Shown here: positions 9,617 to 38,596 of the stretch, piece after piece | How positions within the stretch are numbered: the first letter of the stretch is position 1 | Layout of the letters: each line of letters opens with the position of its first letter | NCBI GenBank assembly: GCA_012985245.1 | Contig: JABELA010000052.1 | Span: 1 to 38,596 of the forward strand | Length of the DNA: 38,596 nucleotides | DNA from: Corallococcus exiguus | GTDB lineage: Bacteria; Myxococcota; Myxococcia; Myxococcales; Myxococcaceae | Direction: 5' to 3' | Position numbers and translations under genes: made by a program | Notes under the pieces: generated by a model | Seen by the model: the letters and a program-made list of their open reading frames with translations, nothing else | Told to the model about the DNA's origin: nothing | Database searches by the model: none

Positions 9617-9720
9617 GGCCCGGTGCTTCGAATCACAGACGGATGACGCGCAAACAGCCCGGTCGACCTCTTCACGAGGTCGCCGGGCCGAATCACTTCC
9701 AGGGGCTTTCGCCGCCGGGA

Positions 9721-24004: not shown

Positions 24005-24817
24005 TCAAGAAAACATGCGCTGCAGGTCCAGTAACATCACCGGATCCGGCAGCCCCGGCGCCCGGAACGTTCCGGGAAGCTCGGCCGGCTTGAACTTCTG
24101 CAGCACACCCAGCACCCGGTTGGCCGCCAGCCCCACGTTCCGCCCCGCCATTTCCGTGAGGACGAACAACTCCTCCGCCTGGGCCGGCGCACCCAGCAGC
24201 GCTGGAATCGAACAGATGGGCCATAGCGCCTGCGCGTGGGGATAGACGCCCGCCACCGGCCCGCTCTGCACCGGGAGGACGCTGAACGCCTCGCCCCGGG
24301 GTACCACCTGGGAGACGCAACCCAGCGGGACGCCGAACAGCACCCCCTGGGACTCCAGCACCAGCGCCCGCTCAGGGGGCTCGTCCGCATAGTGCACGGG
24401 CCGGGGCTCTGGCGGGGTCGCCCGGGGGCCCGCCCGGTGCGGCAGCGCCTCCACGATGAGCTCCAGGTACAGCCGGTCCTTGTGCAGCACCGCGCCCCGG
24501 CTCAGCGGCGCCAGCGAGTCCGCCAGTCCCGGAGGCAGCAGGAAGAACGGATCCCTCGCGACGTCCGCGACCTCCACCACGGCGCGCACCCGCACCGCGA
24601 GCGTGGGGCTGACGTCCAGGACCACCACCATGCCCGGCACTTCCTCAGGCAGGCCGCCGAGCAACGCGGCGAGGTCCTTCACTTCCAGTACGCCGCGCAG
24701 ACTCGCGCCGCGAGCGCCCGGCATCGCGACCTCGATGACGGAGGTGGCCTCCACCGCGTAGCGCGTCTCTCCGGCCTCCACCAGCAGGCAGAGCCGCCGT
24801 CCGCTTTCAAAGGGCAC
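24005..24817 (-). CDS. Tandem CheW-like domain protein (chemosensory coupling protein)
   Basis: Two ~130-aa segments with the CheW-like pattern (RRLCLLVEAGETRYAVEATSVIEV...; ELFVLTEMAGRNVGLAANRVLGV...), including hydrophobic β-strand signatures. No kinase motifs. Confidence 0.6.
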   Translation of the reverse strand: MPFESGRRLCLLVEAGETRYAVEATSVIEVAMPGARGASLRGVLEVKDLAALLGGLPEEVPGMVVVLDVSPTLAVRVRAVVEVADVARDPFFLLPPGLADSLAPLSRGAVLHKDRLYLELIVEALPHRAGPRATPPEPRPVHYADEPPERALVLESQGVLFGVPLGCVSQVVPRGEAFSVLPVQSGPVAGVYPHAQALWPICSIPALLGAPAQAEELFVLTEMAGRNVGLAANRVLGVLQKFKPAELPGTFRAPGLPDPVMLLDLQRMFS

Positions 24818-24849
24818 GGCCCGGGACCCTAGCAGCCTTCCAGCGTTGG

Positions 24850-26259
24850 GTGCTAAGCCCTGAAACAGTCATGGCGCGACTGCTCCTCGTCGACGACGAA
24901 AAGATCGCCCGCAATCTCTACGGCGACTACCTCACGGCCGCGGGACACCTGGTCACGGCGGTGCCCACCGTGGCGGACGCGAAGGCCGCCCTCTCCGCGG
25001 CGCGGTTCGACGCGGTGGTGACGGACCTCATCCTCCCCGGCGGCGACGGCATGGAAGTGCTTCGCCACGTGCGCGAGCGCTACCCCGGCGTGGAGGTGCT
25101 GGTCATCACCGGCCTGGACAAGGTGGCCCCCGCGGTGCGCGCCATCAAGAGCGGCGCGGCGGAGTACCTGGTCAAGCCCGTGGCGCCGGAGGCCCTGGAA
25201 CACGCGCTGCGCCGCGCGCTCACCACGCGCGACCTGATGCGTGAGAACGCGTCCCTGCGCCAGCACGTCGCGCTGCTGGAGGCGGGCCAGCGCATCGCCA
25301 CCACGCTCGACCGCGAGCGGCTGTCCACGGCCGCGTCGGACGCGCTGGAGTCCATGGCCAACGCCTCCGCGGTGATGCTCCTGGAGCGGGACCCCGGCGG
25401 CACGGGCTTCCGCTCGCACGGCATGCGCGGGCTGCCGGTGGACCTGCACGAGGCGCTCGTCCCGCTGCTCATCGAGCGGCTTTCGGGCACGCGCACGCAG
25501 GTGGAGCTCGACGGACTTCAAGTTCCCTGGCCGCGCACCCTCTCCTTCCCCGCCGTGGACGGCGAGTTGGTGCTGGGCCACGCGGTGCTCTTCCACGACA
25601 ACGCGCCCGCGGAGCACCACGCGGAGACCGTGGGCTTCCTCGTGCGCAACTGGGCGCTGGCCCTGCGCAACCTGGGCCGCTTCGCCGCCGTGGAGGACCT
25701 GGCCTACGTCGATGATCTCACCCGCCTGTTCAACACGCGCTACCTGCACCTGGTGCTGGACCGCGAGGTGAACGAGGCCCTCCAGACGGAGCGCCCCTTC
25801 TCCCTGCTGTTCCTGGACCTGGACCGCTTCAAGGCCATCAACGACACGCACGGGCACCTGGTGGGCTCGCGGGTGCTGGTGGAGGCCGCGCGCGTGCTCA
25901 AGGGCTGCGTGCGCGACCCGGACGTGGTGGCGCGCTTCGGCGGCGACGAGTACGTGGTGCTCCTGCGCGGCACGGACTCCGGCGGGGCCCTCAAGGTCGC
26001 CGAGCGCATCCGCCGCACCATGGAGACCCATCAGTTCCTGGGCCGCGAGGGGCTGGCGCTCAAGCTCACCACCTGCATCGGCGTGGCCAGCTTCCCGGAG
26101 CATGCCCAGGACAAGGACCACCTGCTGGACCTGTCCGACCGGGCCATGTACCGGGGCAAGCGCGGCACCCGGAACGTCGTCTACATGGCGGCGCAGGACC
26201 TGGAAGCCACCCCGGCCGAGCGCCGTCAGAATCCCCCGCCCCCGCAGGGCCAGGGCTGA
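24850..26259 (+). CDS. Response-regulator diguanylate cyclase (REC–GAF-like–GGDEF)
   Basis: REC domain: LLLVDDE...VVTDLILPGGDGMEVL...VITG...KP. C-terminal GGDEF domain with an RxxD-like I-site and the GGDEY variant (VARFGGDEYVVLL); the DLDRFKAINDTHGH segment is typical of GGDEF. Confidence 0.85.
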   Translation: MLSPETVMARLLLVDDEKIARNLYGDYLTAAGHLVTAVPTVADAKAALSAARFDAVVTDLILPGGDGMEVLRHVRERYPGVEVLVITGLDKVAPAVRAIKSGAAEYLVKPVAPEALEHALRRALTTRDLMRENASLRQHVALLEAGQRIATTLDRERLSTAASDALESMANASAVMLLERDPGGTGFRSHGMRGLPVDLHEALVPLLIERLSGTRTQVELDGLQVPWPRTLSFPAVDGELVLGHAVLFHDNAPAEHHAETVGFLVRNWALALRNLGRFAAVEDLAYVDDLTRLFNTRYLHLVLDREVNEALQTERPFSLLFLDLDRFKAINDTHGHLVGSRVLVEAARVLKGCVRDPDVVARFGGDEYVVLLRGTDSGGALKVAERIRRTMETHQFLGREGLALKLTTCIGVASFPEHAQDKDHLLDLSDRAMYRGKRGTRNVVYMAAQDLEATPAERRQNPPPPQGQG

Positions 26260-26273
26260 ACGCCGGACGCGCG

Positions 26274-26663
26274 CTACTTGCGCAGGCTGCCCACGGTGAG
26301 GTGCTTGGGCAGCTCCACTTCCGCGGGCACGCCGCCGCCGCCCTCGCCCACCGCCTCCACCTCTTCGTGAGACGCGCCGGTGGTGATGAGGCGGTACTTC
26401 TGCGACGCCTCGCGGTCGTGCTGGGCCTGCTGCGGATCCAACCGCGCGATGAGCTGCCAGAAGAGGGCCGCGTGCTCGCGCTCCTCGTCCATGACGTGCC
26501 GCAGGATGGCCTTCGCCTCCTCGTTGTCCGTCGCGTCCAGGTGCGCGGCGTAGAGGTTGATGGCGTCCAGCTCCGCCTCGATGTTGAGCCGGATGGAGCG
26601 GGCCAGTTCGGAGTCCGTCAGCTTCCGGGGCACCAGCGAGTGGAACGGGTTCGTCTGCGGCAT
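26274..26663 (-). CDS. encC: Ferritin-like encapsulin cargo protein (EncB/EncC-like) with C-terminal targeting peptide
   Basis: Only the C-terminal 129 codons of the 505-aa track ORF look genuine (start at MPQTNPF). Two ExxH di-iron motifs (EAELDAINLYAAH; DEEREH) on a ~90-aa four-helix half-ferritin. The C-terminal ...ELPKHLTVGSLRK matches the family-1 encapsulin cargo-loading peptide consensus (LTVGSL). The upstream 375 codons of the ORF are antisense to the histidine kinase and look non-coding. Confidence 0.65.
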   Translation of the reverse strand: MPQTNPFHSLVPRKLTDSELARSIRLNIEAELDAINLYAAHLDATDNEEAKAILRHVMDEEREHAALFWQLIARLDPQQAQHDREASQKYRLITTGASHEEVEAVGEGGGGVPAEVELPKHLTVGSLRK

Positions 26664-26819
26664 GAGGACCTCAGCGACAGGGAGGGTTTCCAGCAAGCGA
26701 GCGGGCAACGACGTTCCGTCAGGCCGGGCTGGAGGACGTGCGCGAGCATCCGTTCGGTCGCGAGCGCGGTCAACCGAATCCCGCTGGGGGTGCGTTGCGC
26801 GTGAACACCTGCCTCCGCC

Positions 26820-28349
26820 ATGCTCCCGTGCATGGAGACCCCCTCGCCGCTCGCGCAGCTGCTCCAGGCCCTGGACGCGGGGGACCTGGAGAAGGCACGG
26901 GTCGCGGCCGTGGCGCTGCAACGCGCCAACGCCCATACCCATCAGGTCGCCGCGGAGGTCCTCCATGAGCTGCGTCAGCCCCTCCTGGGCGCGAAGGCCT
27001 ACGCCCAGCTGCTGGCCGAGGAAGGAGGCTCCAGCGGCCCGCTGAAGCTGCTGCTCGCGCAGGTGGAGCGGATGGAGCAGATTGTCTCCGACTTCATCCG
27101 CCTGGCCAGCGAGCGGCCGGCCCCGCAGCAGCGGCTGTCCCTGGCCGCGCCCATCTGGGCGGCGGCGAAGGTGTTCAGCGTCAACCCGGACTCGGCGCGC
27201 ATCTCGCTGGAGGTGGAGGCCCCCGAGGACCTCACCATCCAGGGCAACGCGCGGCTGATTGAGCAGCTCACGCTCAACCTGCTCAACAACGCCCGCGACG
27301 CCATGTCCGGCCGGGGCCGCGTGAAGGTGACGCTCACGCGCGATGGCGCCTCCGCGGCCCTCTACGTTTCCGACTGGGGACCGGGCATCCCGGACGAGCT
27401 GAAGACGCGCATCTTCGAGCCCTACGTCTCCGCCAGCAAACGCGGCACGGGCCTGGGGCTCGCCGTCTGTCGTCGCATCGCGCAGGAGCACCACGCGCAG
27501 GTTGCCCTGGTGCCGCCCACGACGCTGCGCGAGGTGCCGCCCCCGGCCACGGTGTTCCGCGTGCTCTTCCCGCCCACGGACGCGCCGCGCCCGCCGCGCA
27601 AGCGCCTGCTGGTGGTGGACGACGAGGGCATCATCCGGATGGTCTTCAAGGACCTGATGGACAAGGAGTGCGAAGTCATTGAAGCGGCCACGGGCGAGGC
27701 CGCGCTCGAAATCCTCCGCTCGTCGCGCGTGGACCTCATCGTCACGGACAAGAACCTGCCCGGAATCTCCGGCCTGGAGCTGGCCCAGCACGCGAGGAAG
27801 CTGGACCCCGCGTCGCGCGTCATCCTGATGACGGGCTACCCCTCGCTGGTGACGACGCAGCAGGCGCTGCAGCTGGGCCTGGTGGACTACCTGCTCAAGC
27901 CCTTCGACGACATCCGACAGGTGCGCGCGCTGCTGCGGCAGGCGCTGTACACGCCGGCCGCGCCGCCTGTCCCCGCCCCCAGCGCTGGCGTGCGCCGGGT
28001 GGACGTGCTGGAGGACAACCCGGCCACCGCGCGGCTGATTTCAGAGGCGCTGACGCTGCTGGGCCTGGAGGCGCGCGTCGTCGCGGGCGCGGAGGTGGCC
28101 ACCATGGATCCGCCCGTGGGCGTGGTGGTGTCTTGGGACTTCGCGCCGGCCTACGGCAAGAAGGCGCTGGAGCTGGCCCGGGCCCTGAGCCAGGGCGCGC
28201 CCTTCGTTGTCCTGGCCGAGCACCTCACCATGGACACGGCGCTGGCGTCGCTGCGCGCCGGGGCCGCCGCGTGCCTGCCCAAGCTGCTCTCCGACACCAC
28301 GGCGCTCAGCCGCGAGCTGGGCCTGGCCTTCAAGAAGACCGCTTCCTGA
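26820..28349 (+). CDS. Hybrid sensor histidine kinase with C-terminal receiver domain(s)
   Basis: H-box LHELRQPLLGAKAY. N-box NLLNNARDA. G-boxes DWGPGIP and GTGLGLAVCRRI. REC domain LLVVDDEGIIRM...LIVTDKNLPGISGLEL...ILMTGY...KPF. The distal ~130 aa form a second, degenerate REC-like fold. Confidence 0.85.
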   Translation: MLPCMETPSPLAQLLQALDAGDLEKARVAAVALQRANAHTHQVAAEVLHELRQPLLGAKAYAQLLAEEGGSSGPLKLLLAQVERMEQIVSDFIRLASERPAPQQRLSLAAPIWAAAKVFSVNPDSARISLEVEAPEDLTIQGNARLIEQLTLNLLNNARDAMSGRGRVKVTLTRDGASAALYVSDWGPGIPDELKTRIFEPYVSASKRGTGLGLAVCRRIAQEHHAQVALVPPTTLREVPPPATVFRVLFPPTDAPRPPRKRLLVVDDEGIIRMVFKDLMDKECEVIEAATGEAALEILRSSRVDLIVTDKNLPGISGLELAQHARKLDPASRVILMTGYPSLVTTQQALQLGLVDYLLKPFDDIRQVRALLRQALYTPAAPPVPAPSAGVRRVDVLEDNPATARLISEALTLLGLEARVVAGAEVATMDPPVGVVVSWDFAPAYGKKALELARALSQGAPFVVLAEHLTMDTALASLRAGAAACLPKLLSDTTALSRELGLAFKKTAS

Positions 28350-28434
28350 AAAAGACTCCGGCCCCGGGCGCCCCGCTTTCGCGGAGCCCACCGGGGCCGG
28401 AAACCCTACGAAGCTACGGAGCCGTTACGTCGGC

Positions 28435-30126
<1,692 letters not shown>

Positions 30127-30257
30127 TTAGCACTCGGCCATGTCGAGCGCCAACATAAGGGCCGCATCGACGATGTCAACGGAAAGGGGCAGACGTGTGG
30201 GCCTGAGGACGCCTACTGGCCCGCCCGGGTGGGGGGCCCGGGCTGCCCGGGAAGGCC

Positions 30258-30614
30258 CTACTCCGCGAAGCGCACGAGGTTGAGCAGCTGCCCCATGTCC
30301 AGGGGCTTCTGCAGGGTGATGGCGACGCCCTTGCGCAGGCCCCGGTCGGAGATGTTGGCGTCCGTGCTGGCGGTCATCATCAGGACGGAGATGCGCTGGA
30401 AGCGGGGATCCGCCTTCAGCATCTCCGTGAAGTGGATGCCGTCCAGGTGGGGCATCAGGTAGTCGGTGATGACCAGCCCCACGGGGTGACGCTCCATGAT
30501 GTCCAGGGCCTGGAGCGCGTCCGACGCCGAGAACACGGTGTAGCCATGCATCTCCAGGTAGCGAGAGAGCATGGTGCACAGCTCGTAATCGTCGTCGACG
30601 ACCAGGATGTTCAC
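30258..30614 (-). CDS. Single-domain CheY-like response regulator
   Basis: A 118-aa protein: MNILVVDDD...LVITDYLMPHLDGIHF...MMTAS...QKPLD. The phospho-acceptor Asp and the conserved Thr/Lys are present. Confidence 0.8.
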   Translation of the reverse strand: MNILVVDDDYELCTMLSRYLEMHGYTVFSASDALQALDIMERHPVGLVITDYLMPHLDGIHFTEMLKADPRFQRISVLMMTASTDANISDRGLRKGVAITLQKPLDMGQLLNLVRFAE

Positions 30615-30702
30615 GGGGTTCGGGCCGAAACGGGGCGCTGGAAGGTAACAGCGACGCCGGTCGTTGACAACGCGAAGGACGGCTTCTTAGCTGCCGGCCC
30701 GA

Positions 30703-31776
30703 ATGGCGAAGCGCATGGCGAAGCAAGGGGAGGCGCGGGACATGGACGCGCGGCTGGAGGGAGTCGCGGACGCCTTCGAGGCGAGGGACTTCGAGGCCGC
30801 GCTCACCAGCGCCGACGCCCTGCTCCGGGACGTTCCGGACTCACCAGAAGCCCTGCACTACCGGGCCGCCGCGCTGGTGGAGGTGGGACGCCTGGAGGAC
30901 GCGGGCAAGGCCTATGGCGCCGCCCTCAAGATGGCCCCGGAAGACCTGGAGATCCTCTTCGGCGCGGCGGAATTCCTCGTGTGCCGCACCGGCGAGGACC
31001 GCGAGGCGGTGGAGGAAGGGCTGGAGTGGTGCGGCCGCGGGCGGAAGCTGGCGCAGCGGGCCGATGACGTGGAGCTCGTCTACGAGTTCCTCCTCCTGGA
31101 GGGCATGGGCCTCAACCAGCTGGGGGAATGCGAGTCCGCGCTGAAAATCCTGGACCAGGCGCTGACGCACATGCCGCGCTCGACGGACGCGCAGCTGGAG
31201 CGGGGCATCGCGCTGTTCGAGTTGTGCCGCTTCGCGCCCGCGCAGGAGGCCTTCGAGCGGGTGTTGAAGGACGCGCCGGACGAGGCCTGGGCGCACCACT
31301 ACCTGGGGCTGGTCGCGGAGCGGCGCCAGGATGCGAAGGAGGCGAAGAAGCGCTTCTCCCGGGCGCAGGCGCTGGCCCCGGAGGAGCTGCCGCCGCCGGT
31401 GGCGCTGGAGGAGGCGGCGTTCGACCGCGCGGTGGAGGACGCGATGCGCGCCCTGCCCTCCCAGGTGAAGCAGTACATGGACAACGTGACGCTGGCGGTG
31501 GAGGACCTGCCGTCGGATGAGGACCTGCTGGGTCAGCAGCCGCCACTGTCACCGTGCATCCTGGGGGTGTTCCGGGGCACGCCCGTGGGCGAGCGCAGCG
31601 TGATGGACGCGGCGGATCACTTCCCGCCCTCCATCGTGCTGTACCAGAAGAACCTGGAGCGCTTCGCGCGCACCCGCGAGGAGCTCATCGAACAGATTGG
31701 CATCACGGTGATGCACGAAGTCGGTCACTTGATGGGTCTGGATGAAGACGACCTGTGGGAGCGGGGGCTGGACTAG
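30703..31776 (+). CDS. TPR-repeat protein with C-terminal zincin-like (DUF1025-type) metallopeptidase motif
   Basis: Several 34-aa TPR-like helix pairs (ALHYRAAALVEVGRLEDAGKAYGAALKMAP...). C-terminal ITVMHEVGHLMGLDEDDLWERG carries a HExxH motif. Confidence 0.7.
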   Translation: MAKRMAKQGEARDMDARLEGVADAFEARDFEAALTSADALLRDVPDSPEALHYRAAALVEVGRLEDAGKAYGAALKMAPEDLEILFGAAEFLVCRTGEDREAVEEGLEWCGRGRKLAQRADDVELVYEFLLLEGMGLNQLGECESALKILDQALTHMPRSTDAQLERGIALFELCRFAPAQEAFERVLKDAPDEAWAHHYLGLVAERRQDAKEAKKRFSRAQALAPEELPPPVALEEAAFDRAVEDAMRALPSQVKQYMDNVTLAVEDLPSDEDLLGQQPPLSPCILGVFRGTPVGERSVMDAADHFPPSIVLYQKNLERFARTREELIEQIGITVMHEVGHLMGLDEDDLWERGLD

Positions 31777-31796
31777 CGCCGTTCTCCCCTGCCCTG

Positions 31797-32099
31797 ATGC
31801 GCGCCATGCATGCATGGACGAAGCTGGGGCTGATGGCGGTGCTGGGTCTGACGGGCTGTCTGGGCGACGACGACGAGGAGCCGCGCACGTGTCCGCAGGT
31901 GGTGGTGTTCGCGCGCTCGGACAGCGAGACGTGCCAGTCCTTCCCGACGCCGTGTGACGTGCCGGAGGGGTACGTCGAGTGCTGCGGCGGCCTCTTCGGG
32001 GGCTGCGCGGGGAACGTGTCCGGGAACACCTGCGTGGATGATCCGTCCGACACGTGCCAGCCCGGGGGCAGCGCGGACTGCCCGGGCATCTGCCAGTAG
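31797..32099 (+). CDS. Small cysteine-rich lipoprotein (hypothetical)
   Basis: Lipobox AVLGLTGC. The ~75-aa mature part has 12 Cys (CPQ...CQSFPTPCDVPEGYVECCGGLFGGCAG...CVDDPSDTCQPGGSADCPGICQ). The start was chosen at MRAMHAW to avoid overlap with the upstream gene. Confidence 0.5.
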   Translation: MRAMHAWTKLGLMAVLGLTGCLGDDDEEPRTCPQVVVFARSDSETCQSFPTPCDVPEGYVECCGGLFGGCAGNVSGNTCVDDPSDTCQPGGSADCPGICQ

Positions 32100-32104
32100 G
32101 CGTC

Positions 32105-34504
32105 TCAGGCGGCGCGAGAGCCCTTGTCCTCGAAGTAGGCGCGGCGGGCTCGGGCGCAGGTGGGGCACTGCCACTGCACCAGGGTGAGGTGGCGGTCGCC
32201 CAGGACGACGGCCTCGTGGCGGAGCGACTCCCGTGGGGCCTCGCTGGTGGCTCCGCAGGCGCAGCGCAGCCGGCCCAGCGTGGAGAGCAGCTCCTGCGGG
32301 CTGGTGATGGGGATGGCGGACCCGGCGCTGTCGCCCCGGTGGTCCGCGTCGAACTTGCGTGCGAAGGCGCGGCGCCGGCCCCAGGCGCGGCCCTTGCGCC
32401 AGAGCGCCACCGGGCCGCCCTGCGCGATGACGAACCACAGCACGAGGCACGTCGCGATGACGCCCAGGAGGATGGCACCCGCCTCGCCGGACGGAACGGA
32501 TGAGGCCTGGGGGCGGGCGGCCCGGCTCCTGAGTTGGATGGCGTAGCCGCGCTGGGCCTCGGTGGCGCGCACGGCCTTCACGTACTCGGCGATGCGCTCG
32601 GGCGGGACCGAATCCGCGGTGCTGCGGTAGCTGTAGTCGAGCAGCAGCGTCTTGCCTTCGGCGCGGGTGTCGGCCACGAAGCGGAAGGCCGGACCGTCCA
32701 CGACCTCGTACTCCGTTTTGACAGGGGGCAGCTCGCCGGCCTTCAGCGTGATGCGGTGGCGGGCGAAGACGGGGTGCTCCACCTCCAGCGGGAAGGCGCG
32801 GTGGGAGTAGTTCGGCACGGCGAGGTGCTGGCGCAGGCCATGCGCGCGGAACTCCCGGCGACCGTCCGAGGTCCAGAAGTCCTCGATGCGGTAGTGCTCT
32901 TGCGTGACGAGCACGTTCGTCACGGTGTCGTCGTCCACCGACATGGGCTTCGCGATGGAGATGTCCGCGTCCGTCTTCGCGTAGTAGTTGAAGTAGAGGC
33001 GGGACACCTCGGACAGGGACGTGCCCGCGAGCGCGCGGCGCATGGAGTTGGCGTCCGCCCCCGTGCGCGTGGTGACGACGTCGAGTGTCGCGGCCCCGTC
33101 GCGGCCCTTCGCGACGTAGGTCTCGTCCACGAAGATGGAGGGCTCCGTCAGCGTGGGCGCGGGGATGACGGAGAGCGCCGTGGTGGCGGGGGCGACGAGG
33201 AGGGCCCGGCCGTAGGAGGGCGGCTCGTAGCTGTCCAGCCCGCCGCGCTCCAGCGTCGCCGTGGGGTCCACCCACAGCTCACGGCCGGCCACGGTGGCGT
33301 GGACGATGACGTGGTTGAACGCGGTGGCGGTGGGACGCAAGCCGTCCAGCAGCTGCGTGAGGTCCGTGCTCACGAGCGCCGGCTGCGCGTCGATGCCCAG
33401 CCCATTGAGGAGCGATACCAAGAGGAGCGACTTGTCCTTGCAGTCGCCGAAGCGGCGCTGGAGGACCTCGTCGGGCGGATGGGGCTGGTGGGAGTTGGGG
33501 CCCATCTCGATGCCCAGGTAGCGCACCTCGTCCTGGACGAAGCGAAGCGCGGCGAGGAAGCGAGCCTCCGGGGTGGGCTCCTTCGACAGCCGGCGGACCT
33601 CCTGCTCCAGCGACTTCGAGCGGGCGGGCACCTGGAACAGCGTGGAGGCCCAGCGCGCGACGTCGTTCCAGTCCTTGTATTCGCTGAACTGGATCCACGG
33701 GTAGACGGGCTGCCAGCCGGGGACGTTGTCCTCGTGGCGGACCGCGGGCACGTGGCGGCGCTCCAGGATGATTTCACGCTCGCCGTTCAGCATCGACTCC
33801 GAGCGCGACAGGCCCGGCGCGGCGAAGTCCCGGATGAAGAGCGTGCGACCCCGCCCTTCCGGCCACAGCAGCCGGTAGGCGAAGTGGACCACGGGATAGG
33901 AATGGCCCACGCCGACGACGTCGGAGAAGCGGCCGCCAAAGACGGGGTTGGCGCCTTCGAAGGAGTACGCGACCTCCACGGTGTCGCCCACCCGCACGTC
34001 GTGGAGGAAGGGCACCACGGAGAGGTTGCCGTTGTAGAGCCGGTTCTGGAGCTCGGTCTCCTGCTGGATGACCCGGGCCTCGGCGGGCTGGAAGACGTCC
34101 TCGCGGCGGCCGTCGCGGATGCGCCAGATGCCGTGGACGGTGAGCTTCTGGTACGTCGGATCGAAGCGGAACTGGATGTCCGTGACGCGGTCGATGCCCC
34201 GCGGAGAGAGGACCTTCTGGGCCGAGTGCAGGTAGTGCACGCGCGATGGGCCTGACACGCGCACCTGTTCCTCGATCAGCAGCCGGGAGACGCTGGTCTC
34301 CTCCTCGCCCTCGGGAGTCGGGCCGGGGTCTGGAGGAATGGGAAGCGGCCTCACCCACGCGGCGGGAGGCCCGACGCGGAACGGCCTGGCGTTCGTCGCC
34401 GCCGGTGCTGCCCGGGCGATCAAGGACAGACACAGACACAGCAGCAGGACGAGCGCCGGCGGGAAGCCCGGTGCCAGGGGGACGGGACGGAAGGTTCGGC
34501 GCAT
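32105..34504 (-). CDS. Large secreted transglutaminase-like (DUF3857/DUF3858-type) protein with C-terminal TM segment and zinc-ribbon-like tail
   Basis: Signal peptide (ALVLLLCLCLSLIARAAP). Transglutaminase-like Cys core FGDCKDKSLLLVSLLNGLGIDAQPALV. TM helix AILLGVIATCLVLWFVIA near the C-terminus, followed by CACG...CPTCARA Cys pairs. Confidence 0.8.
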   Translation of the reverse strand: MRRTFRPVPLAPGFPPALVLLLCLCLSLIARAAPAATNARPFRVGPPAAWVRPLPIPPDPGPTPEGEEETSVSRLLIEEQVRVSGPSRVHYLHSAQKVLSPRGIDRVTDIQFRFDPTYQKLTVHGIWRIRDGRREDVFQPAEARVIQQETELQNRLYNGNLSVVPFLHDVRVGDTVEVAYSFEGANPVFGGRFSDVVGVGHSYPVVHFAYRLLWPEGRGRTLFIRDFAAPGLSRSESMLNGEREIILERRHVPAVRHEDNVPGWQPVYPWIQFSEYKDWNDVARWASTLFQVPARSKSLEQEVRRLSKEPTPEARFLAALRFVQDEVRYLGIEMGPNSHQPHPPDEVLQRRFGDCKDKSLLLVSLLNGLGIDAQPALVSTDLTQLLDGLRPTATAFNHVIVHATVAGRELWVDPTATLERGGLDSYEPPSYGRALLVAPATTALSVIPAPTLTEPSIFVDETYVAKGRDGAATLDVVTTRTGADANSMRRALAGTSLSEVSRLYFNYYAKTDADISIAKPMSVDDDTVTNVLVTQEHYRIEDFWTSDGRREFRAHGLRQHLAVPNYSHRAFPLEVEHPVFARHRITLKAGELPPVKTEYEVVDGPAFRFVADTRAEGKTLLLDYSYRSTADSVPPERIAEYVKAVRATEAQRGYAIQLRSRAARPQASSVPSGEAGAILLGVIATCLVLWFVIAQGGPVALWRKGRAWGRRRAFARKFDADHRGDSAGSAIPITSPQELLSTLGRLRCACGATSEAPRESLRHEAVVLGDRHLTLVQWQCPTCARARRAYFEDKGSRAA

Positions 34505-34684
34505 GGCGGAGAAGGACTTCCATCATGGAGCCCGGACGACACGCCGGACAAGGCGCCCCCTGGGACACCTGGCGAGCGGCCCCGCTTCATTCACCAGTGA
34601 AAACCGTCATGCAGGCCAAGCCTGGAATTGCCGTGACACGGGCTAGGGTTCCGGCCATCGGTTGGAAGGCCCAGGAGGCTGGCG

Positions 34685-35650
34685 ATGGTCAACGTGAGGC
34701 AGGTCGCGACGCGGCTGAAGAGTGCGTTCCTGGCGGACCCGGAGCGCTTCTATACGAACGAGACAGGGGCCTGGGTGGCGGGGATGCCGGCGCCGAGCGA
34801 CATCCGGGTGACGACGGGCCGGGAGCCCTTCTGGATCAACCTGGGCTACTGGAAGCACGTGGAGAAGGTGGACGACTCCAACGTGGAGCGCGTGGGGGAG
34901 CTGTTCCGGTCCGCCCAGGCGGAGATGGCGCGCCTCCTGGCGAGGACCGCGAAGCTGGGGCCTGGGGATGCCGTCTTGGACTGCGGCTTCGGGTACGCGG
35001 ACCAGGACCTGCTGTGGGCGGAGGAGTTCAAGCCCGCGAGCATCGTCGGGGTGAACATCACGCCGAACCAGGTGAAGGTGGGCCGGGAGCGCGTGAAGCT
35101 GACGGGGCTGGAGGGCGTGGTCCGGCTGGAGGTGGGGAGCGCGACGGCGCTGCCGGGTGCGGGGGCGTTCGACGTGGTGTTCGCGTTGGAGTCCGCGATG
35201 CATTTCCGGATGCGGCAGGACTTCCTGCGCGAGGCCTTCCGGGTGCTGAAGCCGGGAGGCCGGCTGGTGATGGCGGACATGGCGCAGAAGACGGACCGTG
35301 AGGCCGGAGCAGGACTCCGAGCGCGGCTGCGCTACCGCTACTGGCGGGGACTGATTGCGTTTCCGGAGGAGAACGTCTGGTCGACGGAGCGCTACCGGGA
35401 GGAGCTGCGGCGGGCGGGGTTCCAGGACGCGACGGTGGAGTCCATCGCGGAGGATGTGTACCCGGCGGTGAACACGGCGCTGGTGGCGCTGCGGGGCATG
35501 ACGCAGCTGGAGAGGCAGCCGGGGAGCACGTCCCTGCACCAGGTGCGCGCGGACGTGCACAAGGCGATGCGGATGACACCGGAGCAGCTCCAGTGGCCCG
35601 CGCTGTTCAACTGCGATGAGTACGCCGTGGTGTCCGCGCGCAAGCCGTGA
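34685..35650 (+). CDS. Class I SAM-dependent methyltransferase
   Basis: Motif I VLDCGFGYADQD. Motif post-II/III ...FDVVFALESAMHF...LKPGGRLVMAD. Confidence 0.8.
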   Translation: MVNVRQVATRLKSAFLADPERFYTNETGAWVAGMPAPSDIRVTTGREPFWINLGYWKHVEKVDDSNVERVGELFRSAQAEMARLLARTAKLGPGDAVLDCGFGYADQDLLWAEEFKPASIVGVNITPNQVKVGRERVKLTGLEGVVRLEVGSATALPGAGAFDVVFALESAMHFRMRQDFLREAFRVLKPGGRLVMADMAQKTDREAGAGLRARLRYRYWRGLIAFPEENVWSTERYREELRRAGFQDATVESIAEDVYPAVNTALVALRGMTQLERQPGSTSLHQVRADVHKAMRMTPEQLQWPALFNCDEYAVVSARKP

Positions 35651-35690
35651 CGGTGGTTGACGGACTGGCGCGGAGCGGCGGTAATCGCCT

Positions 35691-35790
35691 GCGGTAGGGC
35701 CTCCGGACCTGGTGGCCGGCCCGGTCTTCAAAACCGGTGAGGGGCTGCGAGAGCAGTCCCTGGCGAGTTCGATTCCCGTGCCCTACCGCC
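35691..35790 (+). tRNA. selC: tRNA-Sec (selC-like, anticodon UCA) with long variable arm
   Basis: Acceptor arms gcggtaggg / ccctaccgc. Anticodon stem-loop ccggt-cTTCAaaa-ccgg closely matches E. coli selC GGACTTCAAATCC. Long extra arm ggggctgc-gaga-gcagtccc (E. coli: GGGGCCGC-CA-GCGGTCCC). T-loop gagTTCGATTccc. Total length ~100 nt. Exact ends are ±3 nt. Confidence 0.7.
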
Positions 35791-35879
35791 ATGTTTTCCT
35801 TGGGGTTTTCTGACGCGGCCCTGATCGGGTTGCGAGGCGCCCTGCCCTCCCTTACCTCTCGTACCCAAGTTCTACCCAA

Positions 35880-37046
35880 ATGAGGGGGTACGGGCCGCGT
35901 ATGCCGAAGTGGAGCGGGAAGTGGATCGGGGGCCGCACGTACACGGCCACCGACGGAAGCACGCGCTGGATCATCCGCAAGACCGTCGCCGGGGTCGCGC
36001 ACAACGTCACGCTGGACGTGCGGAGCGAGGCCGAGGCACTGGCCGAGCTGGCGGCCTTCCGCCGCAACCCGGTCGCGTACCGGACCGCGAGCCAGGAGCG
36101 CCAGGACGAGGCCCAGCAGGCCCAAGAGGACGCCGCGCAGGCGGTGTTCCTGGACGAGGATCGCGCCCGGCGGTTCCTCCAGCACCTGAAGGCCAGCGGC
36201 AGGTCCGTCGAGTACCTGAAGAGCACGCGCAGCTACCTGGCCGCGTGGGCAACGGCGCTCATGGGCAAGGACCTACGCGTGGTGACCGGACCGGCGTTGA
36301 AGAAGATCCTGGCCACCTGGGACACCGGAAAGAAGTGGAGAATCATCGTGTTCAAGTCCTTCACCTCGTTCCTACTGGACGCGGGCGAGTTGGACCCGAT
36401 GGTGAACCCCGGGCGCTTCCTGAAGGTCCCCCCTGCCCGTCGAAACCACGAACTCAAGGGCTACAGCATCGAGCACGTCCAGAAGCTCTACGCGGCCCTC
36501 GGCTCGCAGGCCATCCGCGACGTGCTGTGCCTCCAGGCCAAGACCGGAATGCACGGCACCGAGGTGGACCGGCTCGCGAGCGGTGACGGAAAGATCACGG
36601 CGTTGAAGGACCAGGGCGAGATCGCAGCCACCGTCACGTTCAAGCACAAGACCGGGAAGCGGTTCACCTTGTCGCTCGATACGCAGGGGCTCGCCGCCGC
36701 CCAGCGCCTTCAAGCCCGGGGTTCAGCGCCGGATCGGCAGACCATCCGTGAGGCCGTGGAGCGAGTGTGCGCGCGCACGGGCCTGGAGTTCGTTCACTTC
36801 GGCGCGATCCGGCACAGCTTCGCAACATGGCTGGTCGAGCGAGGCAGCCTTTACAACCCGCAGGGCGGCGGCCTCTCCCTGGAAGCCGTAGCCCAGGCGC
36901 TCAACCACAGCAGCACACGGACCACGGCCCTCCACTACGTCAGCGCCACAGTGCCGCCGATGTACGTCGTCCCCATCTGCCTGGCGCATCCAGCCGATCC
37001 AGTGACGCTGCGCATCGTACAGGCCCAGGCGCTTCAGTCCGAATGA
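35880..37046 (+). CDS. int: Tyrosine-type site-specific integrase (phage integrase family)
   Basis: C-terminal catalytic domain with R...HxxR (IRHSFATWLVERG) and a Tyr nucleophile region (LNHSSTRTTALHYV). The N-terminal SAM-like/arm-binding region is present. The gene sits 90 nt downstream of the tRNA-Sec 3' end. Confidence 0.9.
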   Translation: MRGYGPRMPKWSGKWIGGRTYTATDGSTRWIIRKTVAGVAHNVTLDVRSEAEALAELAAFRRNPVAYRTASQERQDEAQQAQEDAAQAVFLDEDRARRFLQHLKASGRSVEYLKSTRSYLAAWATALMGKDLRVVTGPALKKILATWDTGKKWRIIVFKSFTSFLLDAGELDPMVNPGRFLKVPPARRNHELKGYSIEHVQKLYAALGSQAIRDVLCLQAKTGMHGTEVDRLASGDGKITALKDQGEIAATVTFKHKTGKRFTLSLDTQGLAAAQRLQARGSAPDRQTIREAVERVCARTGLEFVHFGAIRHSFATWLVERGSLYNPQGGGLSLEAVAQALNHSSTRTTALHYVSATVPPMYVVPICLAHPADPVTLRIVQAQALQSE

Positions 37047-37173
37047 GACACCGCACCGTCCTTTGGTTGCCTTGACAGTGTTCTGACCACTCTTACGTTG
37101 GCGTGCCAGCGAGCATGCCGCCCGGTGGCTTTGACTTTGGACCTACTGGCTCCTCGGGAGCCCCGGAGGAGCT

Positions 37174-37965
37174 ATGCGTTTGATTCAGAGATTCCTCGAC
37201 CTGCTGTCCGGCGAGGAAGTGCCACTGCCGCTGCGAGCGCTGGGCATCACACGCGACCAGATGCGGTTCTTGAGGGTCGAGGCCGAGAAGGCGGCGGCAA
37301 TGCCGCCACGCGTAGCGCTAATCGGCGAGACGGGTGTGGGCAAGTCCACGACCATCAATGCCCTTTTCAATGCAGGGCGCCCGGTGAGCCACACCGAAGC
37401 CTGCACCCAGGAGGCGCACGAATCCCGCTACACCGGCTCCAAAGGAGAAATCGTTGTCGTGGACATGCCCGGCATCGGTGAGGACACGGAGGCGGACAAG
37501 GTGCACCTCGACACGTACCGGCGCGTCCTTCCCACCGTGGACGTTGTGCTGTGGGTGTTCAAGGCCGACAACCGCGCCATCGCCAACATTCAGCGCGTGT
37601 TGAAGGTGCTGGTGGATGAGAGCGTCTTGAACCCGAAGCACTTGGTCATTGGACTTAATCAGGTGGACCTGCTTCAGCCCGGAGAGTGGAACTCGCTCAT
37701 CAACTTGCCCTCGGCGCAGCAGGAAGAGTCCATTCATGCGCGCACCCGGGACATCGAGGCGAAGCTGGGACGCGCATGCCCCCTACCGGCCGGACGGGTG
37801 GTGCCCTACTCGGCGACGAAGGCATACGAAACGGACCGCCTCTTCCATGCGATGCTTGATGCCTGTGACCGTAAGCGTCAGTGGGCATTGTTTGAGCGCG
37901 CAGACTGCGCCGACTTCACCACCCTTGTGGACCCCAACCTGCTGAAGCTGGCGGCTGGAAACTAG
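37174..37965 (+). CDS. YeeP/YfjP-like small GTPase (MMR_HSR1 / 50S-ribosome-binding-GTPase fold) of integrated islands
   Basis: G1 GETGVGKST. G3 DMPGIGE. G4 NQVD. The ~260-aa size and the integrase-adjacent position are typical of the E. coli prophage YeeP/YfjP/YkfA family. GC is noticeably lower than in the host genes. Confidence 0.8.
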   Translation: MRLIQRFLDLLSGEEVPLPLRALGITRDQMRFLRVEAEKAAAMPPRVALIGETGVGKSTTINALFNAGRPVSHTEACTQEAHESRYTGSKGEIVVVDMPGIGEDTEADKVHLDTYRRVLPTVDVVLWVFKADNRAIANIQRVLKVLVDESVLNPKHLVIGLNQVDLLQPGEWNSLINLPSAQQEESIHARTRDIEAKLGRACPLPAGRVVPYSATKAYETDRLFHAMLDACDRKRQWALFERADCADFTTLVDPNLLKLAAGN

Positions 37966-37977
37966 GAGCGCACGATC

Positions 37978-38193
37978 ATGTCCTTTTCCGATGACGAGAA
38001 CGTCAAGCGCTTGCGCCAAGGGCTCGATCAACGCAGCCAGTGGCGGATCAAGAACGAAGAGATAGCAGCGAACTCCATCACCGACTTCCTGATGGATCTC
38101 ATTCGACCATTCGTGAAGGAAGTTGCCCAAGCTGCGGTCTCAGCCTTTAGCGGCTTCATCGATTGGCTCCGAGGGCTCTTTGCCAAGAAGTAG
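37978..38193 (+). CDS. Small protein with C-terminal amphipathic/hydrophobic helix (hypothetical, 71 aa)
   Basis: RBS AGGAGC 8 nt upstream. It lies 12 nt after the GTPase stop, so translational coupling is possible. The C-terminus VAQAAVSAFSGFIDWLRGLFAKK looks membrane-interacting. Low GC. Confidence 0.45.
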   Translation: MSFSDDENVKRLRQGLDQRSQWRIKNEEIAANSITDFLMDLIRPFVKEVAQAAVSAFSGFIDWLRGLFAKK

Positions 38194-38332
38194 CGCGGCA
38201 CCCACCAGAATCCACCGGCCTTGGGTGGCGAAGTGCTCGGGGAGCTGAAGCAATTTTCTCCCCGAGTTGCTTTCACCCCAGAGGCTCATGGCTATTCTTA
38301 TCTGCCCTTGGCACGAGGTGCGGGCGGCTCAC

Positions 38333-38362
38333 ATTTCCGGAGAGTATATGGATTTAGAGTAT
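38333..38362. repeat. Perfect 15-bp tandem direct repeat (gagtatatggattta x2) in AT-rich intergenic DNA
   Basis: Read directly from the sequence; local GC is ~35–40% against a ~70% background. Confidence 0.8.
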
Positions 38363-38379
38363 ATGGATTTAATGGCCCT

Positions 38380-38459
38380 CAAGGATAAGAGCGCCTAACA
38401 AAAGTAAGGACTGGAGCGGCTTCCCAGAGGGACGGTGCCCCTCTGAAGGGACTTTTGTT
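38380..38459. repeat. ~80-bp imperfect palindrome with 17-bp perfect arms (gagcgcctaacaaaagt / acttttgttaggcgctc) and nested inner inverted repeat
   Basis: Arms read directly. The inner cttcccagaggg / ccctctgaaggg pairing is also visible. This could be an IS end/target structure, a terminator or a small RNA. Confidence 0.6.
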
Positions 38460-38500
38460 AGGCGCTCTATGGGCCTGCTCCGGTTCGGTGGACAGGTTGA

Positions 38501-38596
38501 CTACGCTGCCAGCCTCTTGGTTGCGGCCCTCCGCTCGTATTCCACTGGGCTGACGTAGCCCAGGGCGGAGTGGCGCCGCTTCCGGTTGTAGAACAC
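38501..38596 (-). mobile_element. 3' end of IS3-family transposase gene (orfB, DDE/rve C-terminus), truncated by window edge
   Basis: The reverse complement of 38501–38596 translates to VFYNRKRRHSALGYVSPVEYERRAATKRLAA*. The FYN(R/H)xRxHSxLGYxSPxE(F/Y)E signature is the conserved C-terminus of the IS3/rve integrase core. Confidence 0.6.

Follow-up and report, generated by a model that had tools for sequence, protein, structure and literature searches.

A probable family of integrative elements at the tRNA-Sec gene of Myxococcaceae, seen at its left junction in Corallococcus exiguus

The tRNA-Sec gene, selC, is a classic target of integration, and LEE and SHI-2 are islands of the Enterobacteriaceae that are integrated there. 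In Myxococcus xanthus, the myxophages Mx8 and Mx9 integrate at tRNA genes and are used as integration vectors. To our knowledge, few mobile elements are known in Corallococcus and Myxococcus. Here, we describe a locus of Corallococcus exiguus at which a tRNA-Sec gene is followed by genes for a tyrosine integrase, a GTPase and a small peptide. The stretch analysed, called the window below, is one complete contig of 38,596 bp (JABELA010000052.1), and its right edge is an assembly break inside the island. Coordinates of the form 35xxx to 38xxx refer to the window, and the numbers L001 to L092 denote the stretches of relatives' or metagenome DNA with which it was compared. We are highly confident that window positions 35693-38596 hold the left attachment-site (attL) junction and the first cargo of a family of integrative elements that target tRNA-Sec in Myxococcaceae. 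Integration is indicated by att repeats and an empty site in relatives, by the strain-specific presence of the island, and by near-identical elements in different genera. The family is apparently undescribed, and an island of this type at a tRNA gene is in itself ordinary. A partial search of the literature for tRNA-Sec islands or selenoproteins in myxobacteria found nothing relevant.

The tRNA-Sec gene (35693-35791, plus strand, anticodon tca) is the sole tRNA that ARAGORN calls in the window. Over its whole length it also matches Rfam model RF01852, with 70.5 bits where the gathering score is 47 (E 1.6e-13). The selC-like tRNA of a preliminary description, which had been made from the letters of the window, is thus called by two independent tools. 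The gene is intact, forms attL and does not differ from the tRNA-Sec of three other Corallococcus genomes (100% identity). On its 3' side lie three open reading frames (ORFs) of the same strand, at 35880-37046, 37174-37965 and 37978-38193; the proteins deposited for the window are NNC03370-NNC03374. The first of these ORFs encodes the tyrosine integrase that had been noticed close behind the tRNA. Its longest form begins 89 nt after the tRNA, and the deposited protein (NNC03372, 35901-37046, plus strand), which starts at the ATG at 35901 after a gap of 109 nt, has 381 aa and is apparently intact. The protein scores 33.2 bits with Pfam Phage_integrase (PF00589; cut-off 27.1) and matches phrog_1, 'integrase', over residues 17-346 (E 6.7e-17). 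In an AlphaFold2 (AF2) model of lambda-Int-like architecture (pLDDT 86.9), an N-terminal domain of four strands plus a helix precedes a helical core-binding domain and a catalytic domain, and the best Foldseek matches are XerH, XerA, Brujita Int and full-length lambda Int, with E about 1e-6. As had been proposed, the left end of the island is captured here and the right end lies beyond the window, which is the whole contig.

Important evidence for integration comes from repeats of the tRNA. A direct repeat of its 3' part had been predicted, and such repeats are found in relatives (L002, L006, L038/L039, C. interemptor L022 and C. llansteffanensis L024). Alignment with relatives gives an att core of 64-66 nt, which in the window runs from the anticodon loop (CTTCAAAACCGG...) to the 3' end of the tRNA (35726-35791, plus strand) and occurs only once. 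For example, Corallococcus sp. BB11-1 (L002) repeats window 35723-35789 at 13752-13818, 3.9 kb 3' of the tRNA, with 98.5% identity over 67 nt, or 100% over 64 nt when the tRNA is the query. Partial cores without a tRNA 5' half stand at this position of L002, at L006 16268-16331 and at L038/L039 15972-16037, as well as in L015, L022, L024, L025, L028 and L029. A scan with 34 nt of the core, in one genome per species, returned 26 stretches, comprising 19 full tRNA-Sec genes and 7 partial copies. Full gene and partial copy occur together in C. interemptor, C. llansteffanensis, C. exercitus AB043A, Pyxidicoccus fallax and C. coralloides KYC2213. The two are found on contigs 8 and 163 (L022) in C. 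interemptor and on separate contigs, L032 for the tRNA and L024 for the partial core, in C. llansteffanensis; in C. coralloides DSM 2259 (L006) and C. exiguus L038/L039, the partial core follows about 5 kb after the tRNA. Partial cores of the family type are preceded by a conserved right arm, ...TCCCNCCGGGCACCTNGCGGATCGGGGTGGCGGGG, and the right arm of the element family ahead of a 66-nt core reads ...GTACCCAAGCNGTACCCAAG...CGGATCGGGGTGGCGGGG. An unoccupied attachment site (attB) is present in Corallococcus sp. CA053C (L010), where tRNA-Sec directly abuts the sequence that in C. llansteffanensis lies behind the partial copy. Here, L010 1-1551 matches the attL side (L032) at 89-94% identity, and L010 1483-1855 matches the attR copy and its flank (L024) at 91%; the identities given for the upstream and the downstream side are 93.6% and 91.2%, respectively.

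Comparison with genomes that lack the insertion, which had been suggested as a check, can be made both with this empty site and within the species. Conspecific strains of C. exiguus (L038/L039) are 98.6% identical to window 24682-35843, that is, through the tRNA and 52 nt of the left arm, and then diverge. Their island (11111-16037) is about 4.9 kb long, runs from tRNA-Sec to a perfect core repeat and keeps the right arm, and both integrase and GTPase are absent from it. Its cargo consists of GmrSD_N (type IV restriction-like), an IS66 fragment, an unknown ORF, DUF2019 and Imm11 (immunity protein). Within the stretches examined, no homologue of the window integrase follows tRNA-Sec in C. coralloides, C. 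exercitus, C. carmarthensis, C. sicarius, C. terminator, C. praedator, C. aberystwythensis or several Myxococcus and Pyxidicoccus. Because it is absent from L038/L039 and from these other tRNA-Sec loci, the integrase-GTPase block is strain-specific, and the earlier proposal of a mobile island agrees with its lack of conservation at this locus.

Elements related to that of the window can be followed through the family. Close homologues of the integrase (86-93% identity) occur in Myxococcaceae only, and the 17 proteins of its 90% cluster come from Corallococcus, Myxococcus and Stigmatella. An integrase 90-97% identical to that of the window adjoins tRNA-Sec in six genomes, each with different cargo: C. 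interemptor AB047A (L003), Corallococcus sp. BB11-1 (L002), C. llansteffanensis (L032), Myxococcus sp. NMCA1 (L004), Myxococcus sp. MISCRS1 (L005) and M. vastator (L009). The distance from tRNA to integrase is the same as in the window in L002, L004, L005, L009 and L032, whose integrases are 90-95% identical. C. interemptor is the closest relative; L003 is 96.5% identical to window 35600-38278 and shows the order methyltransferase, tRNA-Sec, integrase, GTPase, 71-aa peptide. After int, L002 has four small ORFs, L004 a 277-aa ORF and an HNH protein, and L005 a 316-aa ORF. A common backbone is encoded on the opposite strand in L001, L004 and L005, namely an excisionase-like HTH_17 protein and a DUF3854/DUF5906 primase-helicase of about 775 aa, and the C. 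interemptor copy continues with a DUF4145 gene and small ORFs, then the same HTH_17/primase-helicase backbone. On contigs of 2,307 and 605 bp, the assembly that contains the window (HJC10_ prefix) also encodes counterparts of two C. interemptor island proteins: one of 110 aa, at 95% identity, and a piece of the primase, at 98%. By these sequence matches, the rest of the island is present in the window's genome, on small contigs.

Elements of this kind appear in two genera in near-identical form. Corallococcus sp. CA047B (L001, 9821-18934) and Myxococcus sp. MISCRS1 (L005, 9821-19119) carry the same element of about 9 kb, and its first 6.3 kb are 96.5% identical, as compared with 78-85% between the chromosomal flanks of Corallococcus and Myxococcus. 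No tRNA 5' half precedes the L001 element, which starts with the very first base of the core and has a Myxococcus-type variable arm; this structure is consistent with insertion into a partial core that another element had left behind. That L001 might be a tandem duplicate of one element was considered and rejected, as its two 388-aa kinase genes have no DNA similarity.

The site also receives other integrases. A lineage 44-45% identical to the window integrase and in reversed orientation adjoins partial tRNA-Sec cores in M. xanthus AM003 (L016) and C. coralloides KYC2213, so that tRNA-Sec is a shared, stackable site for at least two integrase lineages. In KYC2213 (L026, L028, L029; about 5.76-5.85 Mb), partial cores lie 41.0 and 81.7 kb 3' of tRNA-Sec, an arrangement indicating two stacked islands. 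The reversed integrase, 45% identical, abuts the first of these cores, and the same layout is seen in L016 and in the IMG/VR provirus L090. As a separate observation, a record labelled Comamonas sp. KCTC 72670 (L018, BNCN01000007.1) has a tRNA-Sec that matches the 34-nt Myxococcaceae core pattern exactly and whose variable arm is one seen in several Myxococcus-group genomes; this assembly may be mislabelled or contaminated.

Two natural cases can be used to place the crossover within the core. In C. llansteffanensis, the tRNA at attL has a variable arm of the Myxococcus/element type and the copy at attR has the Corallococcus type, which is expected if the core copy of the element replaced the 3' part of the host tRNA, so that the exchange is placed 5' of the variable arm. 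In C. exiguus L039, the tRNA has a host-specific variant of the anticodon stem (TTGG/CCAA) and the attR copy has CCGG; since the tRNA keeps the CCAA strand, the crossover should lie 3' of the anticodon stem. Strand exchange probably occurs within the segment bracketed in this way, TGAGGGGC (35738-35745, plus strand), between anticodon stem and variable arm. The integrase-proximal arm (35792-35900, plus strand), which is the 109 nt between tRNA and int, is conserved in all family members in the alignment and holds candidate arm-type sites: GTACCCAAG at 35861-35869, CTACCCAAA 11 nt later at 35872-35880, and an inverted GGGTAC at 35886-35891. About 115 nt ahead of the core, the right arms of L022, L024, L025 and L039 each have two exact copies of GTACCCAAG with the same 11-nt spacing. 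Arm-type sites would fit the predicted structure of the integrase, with its arm-binding N-terminal domain.

From these features, a route of integration can be proposed. A lambda-type integrase of three domains (arm-binding N-terminal, core-binding and catalytic) would act on an attP of the element that carries a 64-66-nt copy of the tRNA, from anticodon loop to 3' end, and would recombine it with the chromosomal tRNA-Sec, with strand exchange probably in TGAGGGGC. The tRNA-Sec would thereby be rebuilt intact at attL, directly 5' of int, and the displaced 3' part would stay as a direct repeat at attR. Variable cargo occupies a slot right after int, which in the window strain and in C. interemptor holds the GTPase and a putatively co-transcribed 71-aa peptide. 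In the window strain, a miniature inverted-repeat transposable element (MITE) and an IS3-family insertion sequence (IS) later inserted into the island, and the assembly broke at that point. The present-day mobility of the window copy and the function of its cargo are matters of inference.

The integrase itself is a member of the tyrosine recombinase superfamily with a deviant pentad, and the catalytic residues R-K-H-R-H/W are not all found in it. Lys250, Arg304, His336 and the nucleophile Tyr346 are kept. In a profile alignment to XerD, the Arg-I position, aligned to XerD R148, is His218, and the motif LRHSF aligns with the HxxR box so that Gly301 stands where the first His (His-II) is expected. 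Without exception, the 26 family members aligned share the motif KTGMH(G)TE. These deviations are shared by a large clade. A HMMER search of 1.84 billion representatives gave at least 372 clusters (50% identity) at E <= 1e-30, and His occupies the Arg-I position in 192 of the 192 clade members aligned. Among these 192, Lys250, Arg304, His336 and Tyr346 are invariant barring gaps, except for a single Tyr at the Arg304 position, and the His-II position is Gly, Ser, Glu, Ala, Asn or Lys. Arg206 and Arg224, which are neighbouring residues, are invariant or nearly so in the clade, and one or the other could supply the missing Arg-I guanidinium. The window integrase retains every residue that is invariant across the 192 members. 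Other departures from the pentad have been described: IntCTnDOT uses a different Arg in place of the first one, and IntDes has this Arg at a shifted position and Tyr for the first His (Smyshlyaev et al. 2021, PMC8138268). A description of the His-for-Arg-I variant was not found in the literature, to which access was partial.

Integrases of this clade are evidently active in nature, as judged from repeated precise insertion at tRNA-Sec and from adjacency to tRNA-Leu in a more distant lineage. We put forward, as a tentative view that falls somewhat short of an even chance, that this is a large and apparently undescribed clade in which Arg-I is always His and His-II is missing, and which is active nonetheless by means of an altered active site (His218 itself, or Arg224 or Arg206, in place of the Arg-I guanidinium). 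No tblastn similarity to the integrase was found at E <= 1e-5 in 50,697 sequenced-phage records, and no homologues were found in sequenced plasmids. Distant clade members (27-46% identity) are encoded on IMG/VR proviral contigs of 29-49 kb, and in the provirus L090 a tRNA-Sec core adjoins int. On another IMG/VR contig (L092), a 43% identical integrase (10001-11158) lies 200 nt from a tRNA-Leu(taa) at 9711-9796, which points to different tRNA targets for other lineages of the clade.

The cargo next to the integrase is a pair of genes. The first (37174-37965, plus strand) encodes a stand-alone GTPase of 263 aa whose G domain matches MMR_HSR1 (E 1.8e-16). Its description as YeeP/YfjP-like holds: it is 35% identical over 145 aa (E 2e-23) to YfjP of the E. 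coli K-12 cryptic prophage CP4-57, a protein of 287 aa. Models of the Era type score 37-46 bits, far under their cut-offs, and NCBIfam has no curated YfjP model, YfjP itself matching generic models only. The match to YfjP is well above such Era-like similarity, and the likeness goes beyond a generic G domain. The GTPase is 99.6% identical to the copy in the C. interemptor island and belongs to a family widespread in myxobacteria, Streptomyces and cyanobacteria; with three alternative starts, it had no identical entry in the protein collection searched. The second gene, for the small peptide already noticed in the preliminary description (37978-38193, plus strand, NNC03374, 71 aa), starts 12 nt past the GTPase stop and has no family match among Pfam, NCBIfam, PADLOC and PHROG profiles. 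Homologues of 60-71 aa are found directly 3' of the GTPase in three other myxobacterial loci (L003, L036 and L037). In two of these, a myxobacterial metagenome contig (L036) and Cystobacter fuscus DSM 2262 (L037), the 263-aa GTPase homologues are 80% and 72% identical, the gene for a peptide of 60-69 aa follows after 12-13 nt, and no integrase is nearby. Because the two genes are kept together there without an integrase, the pair is a conserved two-gene module that moves as a unit.

What this module does is a matter for speculation. From the position of the pair in the variable slot behind int, and from the defence-type genes that conspecific strains hold in this slot, one may speculate that GTPase and peptide together form a defence or toxin-antitoxin module of two genes. 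The slot itself could be a hot spot for cargo or defence genes. PADLOC defence models, which were also run on the peptide and on the DUF4145 and small proteins of C. interemptor, found no system; an assignment of the GTPase to LeoA/LeoBC by PADLOC was rejected, the matches being weak and confined to the G domain.

Beyond the peptide gene, the window soon leaves the shared island. The last stretch in common with the C. interemptor island is 38194-38278, by BLAST and alignment, and similarity to L003 ends at about 38278-38282. It is followed by a 110-bp segment (38279-38388) that has no match in any comparison locus and contains an exact tandem duplication of the 15-bp AGAGTATATGGATTT (33% GC) at 38341-38370. 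Next is a MITE-like hairpin of 79 bp (38389-38467; 79-81 bp) with terminal inverted repeats (A)GAGCGCCTAACAAAAGT, related to the IS5 family (IS427/IS1031-like). Its perfect 18-bp inverted repeat occupies 38388-38405 and 38451-38468, and the DNA fold has an energy of -28.2 kcal/mol (z -5.5). The sequence of the hairpin arm recurs in 49 metagenome stretches from soil and water, of widely varied GC, usually after (C)TNA. In L050 and L088, two inverted copies of the arm stand at the ends of elements, about 870-885 bp long, with DUF4096 and DDE_Tnp_1 ORFs; these ends are identical to the 17/18-bp inverted repeats of the hairpin. Units of about 81 bp with an inner sequence like that of the window occur in L043, L085 and L055. 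From the termini shared with the DUF4096 and DDE_Tnp_1 elements and from these 81-bp units, the hairpin can be identified as a MITE derived from an IS5-family IS; its flanks in the window, TAA and TAT, form an imperfect TNA target-site duplication. The AT-rich repeats reported earlier are thus present, and the inverted one among them is a MITE.

The window then ends, as had been stated, in an IS3 transposase. A minus-strand frame that runs from 38596 down to a stop at 38501-38503 encodes the C-terminus of an IS3-type OrfB (VFYNRKRRHSALGYVSPVEYERRAATKRLAA*), of which the last 31 codons (38501-38596, minus strand) are present before the gene runs off the contig. The 30 residues scanned match Pfam rve_2 (E 6e-5) and rve_3 (E 7.8e-4). 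The end of the IS lies 21-33 nt past the MITE, within 38469-38500 and possibly at TGGACAGG from 38489, so that about 100-130 bp of it are in the window; no match to this terminus was found when metagenomes were scanned for other copies. Base composition changes along the same path. GC is 69.5% 5' of the tRNA, 67.4% in the integrase gene, 62.2% in the GTPase gene, 54.2% in the peptide gene and 56.3% in 38194-38488, and the lowest 100-nt window has 50%. The GC drop that had been reported is therefore real, from 69.5% through 62% to 54%, and was overstated in two respects, since the integrase has 67.4% rather than about 60% and the minimum is 50% rather than below it. The cargo deviates from the host in composition and the integrase hardly does; its GC3 of 0.89 is host-like.

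Care must be taken to weigh what speaks against a tRNA-Sec-targeting element of this kind. The attR of the window copy is not visible, as the contig ends inside the island, and the MITE and the IS3 end interrupt the island, so that this copy may now be immobile. The integrase has neither the canonical Arg-I nor the canonical His-II, and its activity is deduced from distribution. In the window alone, the arm-site motif is no commoner than chance, and the case for the candidate arm sites rests for this reason on conservation in both arms across elements. Genes for conjugation, packaging or capsid were not seen in the element backbone, and, according to a review, no conjugation has been observed in myxobacteria (PMC8538405). 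Some of these points lead to the view that the island is a decayed, non-mobile remnant, broken by MITE and IS3 and perhaps by rearrangement, a view that qualifies integration rather than excluding it. The MITE and the IS3 end directly follow the last shared base, 38278, what remains of the element is on tiny contigs, and decay is seen in relatives, with a frameshifted int in L002 and islands without integrase in L006 and L038/L039. However, the int ORF of the window is full length and has kept all family-invariant residues, insertion of an IS into cargo need not block excision, and the backbone genes in the same genome are 95-98% identical to the C. interemptor copy. We consider a dead remnant unlikely, if well worth keeping in mind.

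Two further explanations concern the nature of the segment as a whole. It could be the edge of a complete temperate prophage of several tens of kb with structural genes, as might be thought from the IMG/VR proviral contigs of 29-49 kb that carry distant clade integrases, with L090 having a tRNA-Sec core beside int, and from the two core-bounded intervals of about 41 kb in C. coralloides KYC2213. However, in the close family, whose int is more than 90% identical, L001 and L005 have only some 9 kb in common, counted from the core to a point shortly behind the kinase gene, and this stretch consists of int, an unknown ORF, HTH_17, the primase-helicase and the kinase, with no capsid, tail or terminase match. 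Moreover, the PHROG matches in the C. interemptor copy are confined to integrase, DNA-binding protein, excisionase, primase and, for the GTPase, two function-unknown families, and none of the 50,697 sequenced phages has a homologue, all of which makes a prophage quite improbable. That the integrase-GTPase block is vertically inherited chromosomal DNA, never mobile, might be argued from the integrase GC of 67.4% against 69.5% in the host and from its GC3. This view is refuted, to the point of being barely conceivable, by conspecific strains that are 98.6% identical in the flank and lack the block, by its patchy distribution across two genera, by the att repeats and the empty site in relatives, and by the 96.5% identity of the element between genera. 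An integrative element, perhaps no longer mobile in this copy, is thus the reading that we retain.

The remainder of the window gives the setting of the tRNA-Sec gene. On its 5' side, window 32118-35638 holds a DUF3857/transglutaminase-like gene and a methyltransferase gene; both are absent from Corallococcus sp. BB11-1 (L002), and in Myxococcus L004 and L005 an epimerase gene and a TetR gene occupy the position 5' of tRNA-Sec. As L002 is without this 3.5-kb segment and L004 and L005 have other genes, the 5' flank is also variable. Genes of the selenoprotein machinery were not among the ten upstream ORFs of the window that were scanned, and promoter and terminator scans of the window gave nothing exceeding chance. 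Farther away, a 758-aa protein (15241-17517, minus strand) has the repeat and shoulder domains of Major Vault Protein (MVP) (MVP_shoulder E 8.7e-45, plus Vault, Vault_2 and Vault_3); it is a bacterial homologue of the protein that makes up the shell of eukaryotic vaults. A LysM protein (9721-11439, minus strand) has a C-terminal domain like VgrG3 of the type VI secretion system (T6SS) (E 2.8e-53); no other T6SS genes were noticed near it.

The att sites, an empty site and probable arm-type sites define the element family, which moves between Corallococcus and Myxococcus. The integrase, together with an attP of roughly 300 bp, could serve as a site-specific integration system for myxobacterial genetics, the third after those of Mx8 and Mx9, and if our reading is true, it would be a new tRNA-Sec-specific tool for myxobacteria. 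The clade, with His for Arg-I, is a new kind of departure from the RKHRH rule and, on the same reading, would have an altered active-site solution. Several element lineages appear to stack at the tRNA-Sec locus, some of them with defence-type cargo such as GmrSD and Imm11.

How does this family compare with described systems? It is like LEE and SHI-2 in its target, in the position of int directly 3' of an intact tRNA, in the repeat of the tRNA 3' part at the distal end (seen here in relatives), and in its strain-specific cargo of lower GC. The analogy with these islands drawn in the preliminary description is sound as far as the target selC goes and does not extend to the integrase family. The host phylum is another one, and the window integrase is not of the P4/SXT type: it matches Pfam PF00589 only, shows no DUF4102-type arm-binding domain, and has only weak Xer-type matches in NCBIfam. 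In addition, the core of the family is long (64-66 nt, from the anticodon loop), its backbone is int, an excisionase-like gene and a primase, and its cargo is not virulence genes. Satellites of the CP4-57/P4 kind are similar in having an integrase by a tRNA-like gene (ssrA in CP4-57) and an AlpA/HTH_17-type regulator or excisionase; CP4-57 also has a protein of the primase-helicase type and YfjP, the GTPase 35% identical to that of the window. In contrast, the target gene differs, the primase-type domains are DUF3854/DUF5906 where YfjI of CP4-57 is annotated DUF3987, there is no sign of a helper phage or of P4 capsid-size genes, and the integrase belongs to another clade with a non-canonical active site.

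For the integrase itself, IntCTnDOT and IntDes offer the nearest parallel, since there too the first Arg of the RKHRH pentad is not kept (PMC8138268), and the window family has R206 and R224 as invariant residues nearby. Unlike in these proteins, the Arg-I position of the family is His in 192 of 192 members, the first His is replaced by Gly, Ser, Glu or Ala and not by Tyr, and the hosts are Myxococcota. Within Myxococcaceae, the counterpart is Mx8 and Mx9, with which the family shares insertion into the 3' part of a tRNA gene by a tyrosine integrase. The window family differs from these phages in that it targets tRNA-Sec and has a backbone without phage structural genes.

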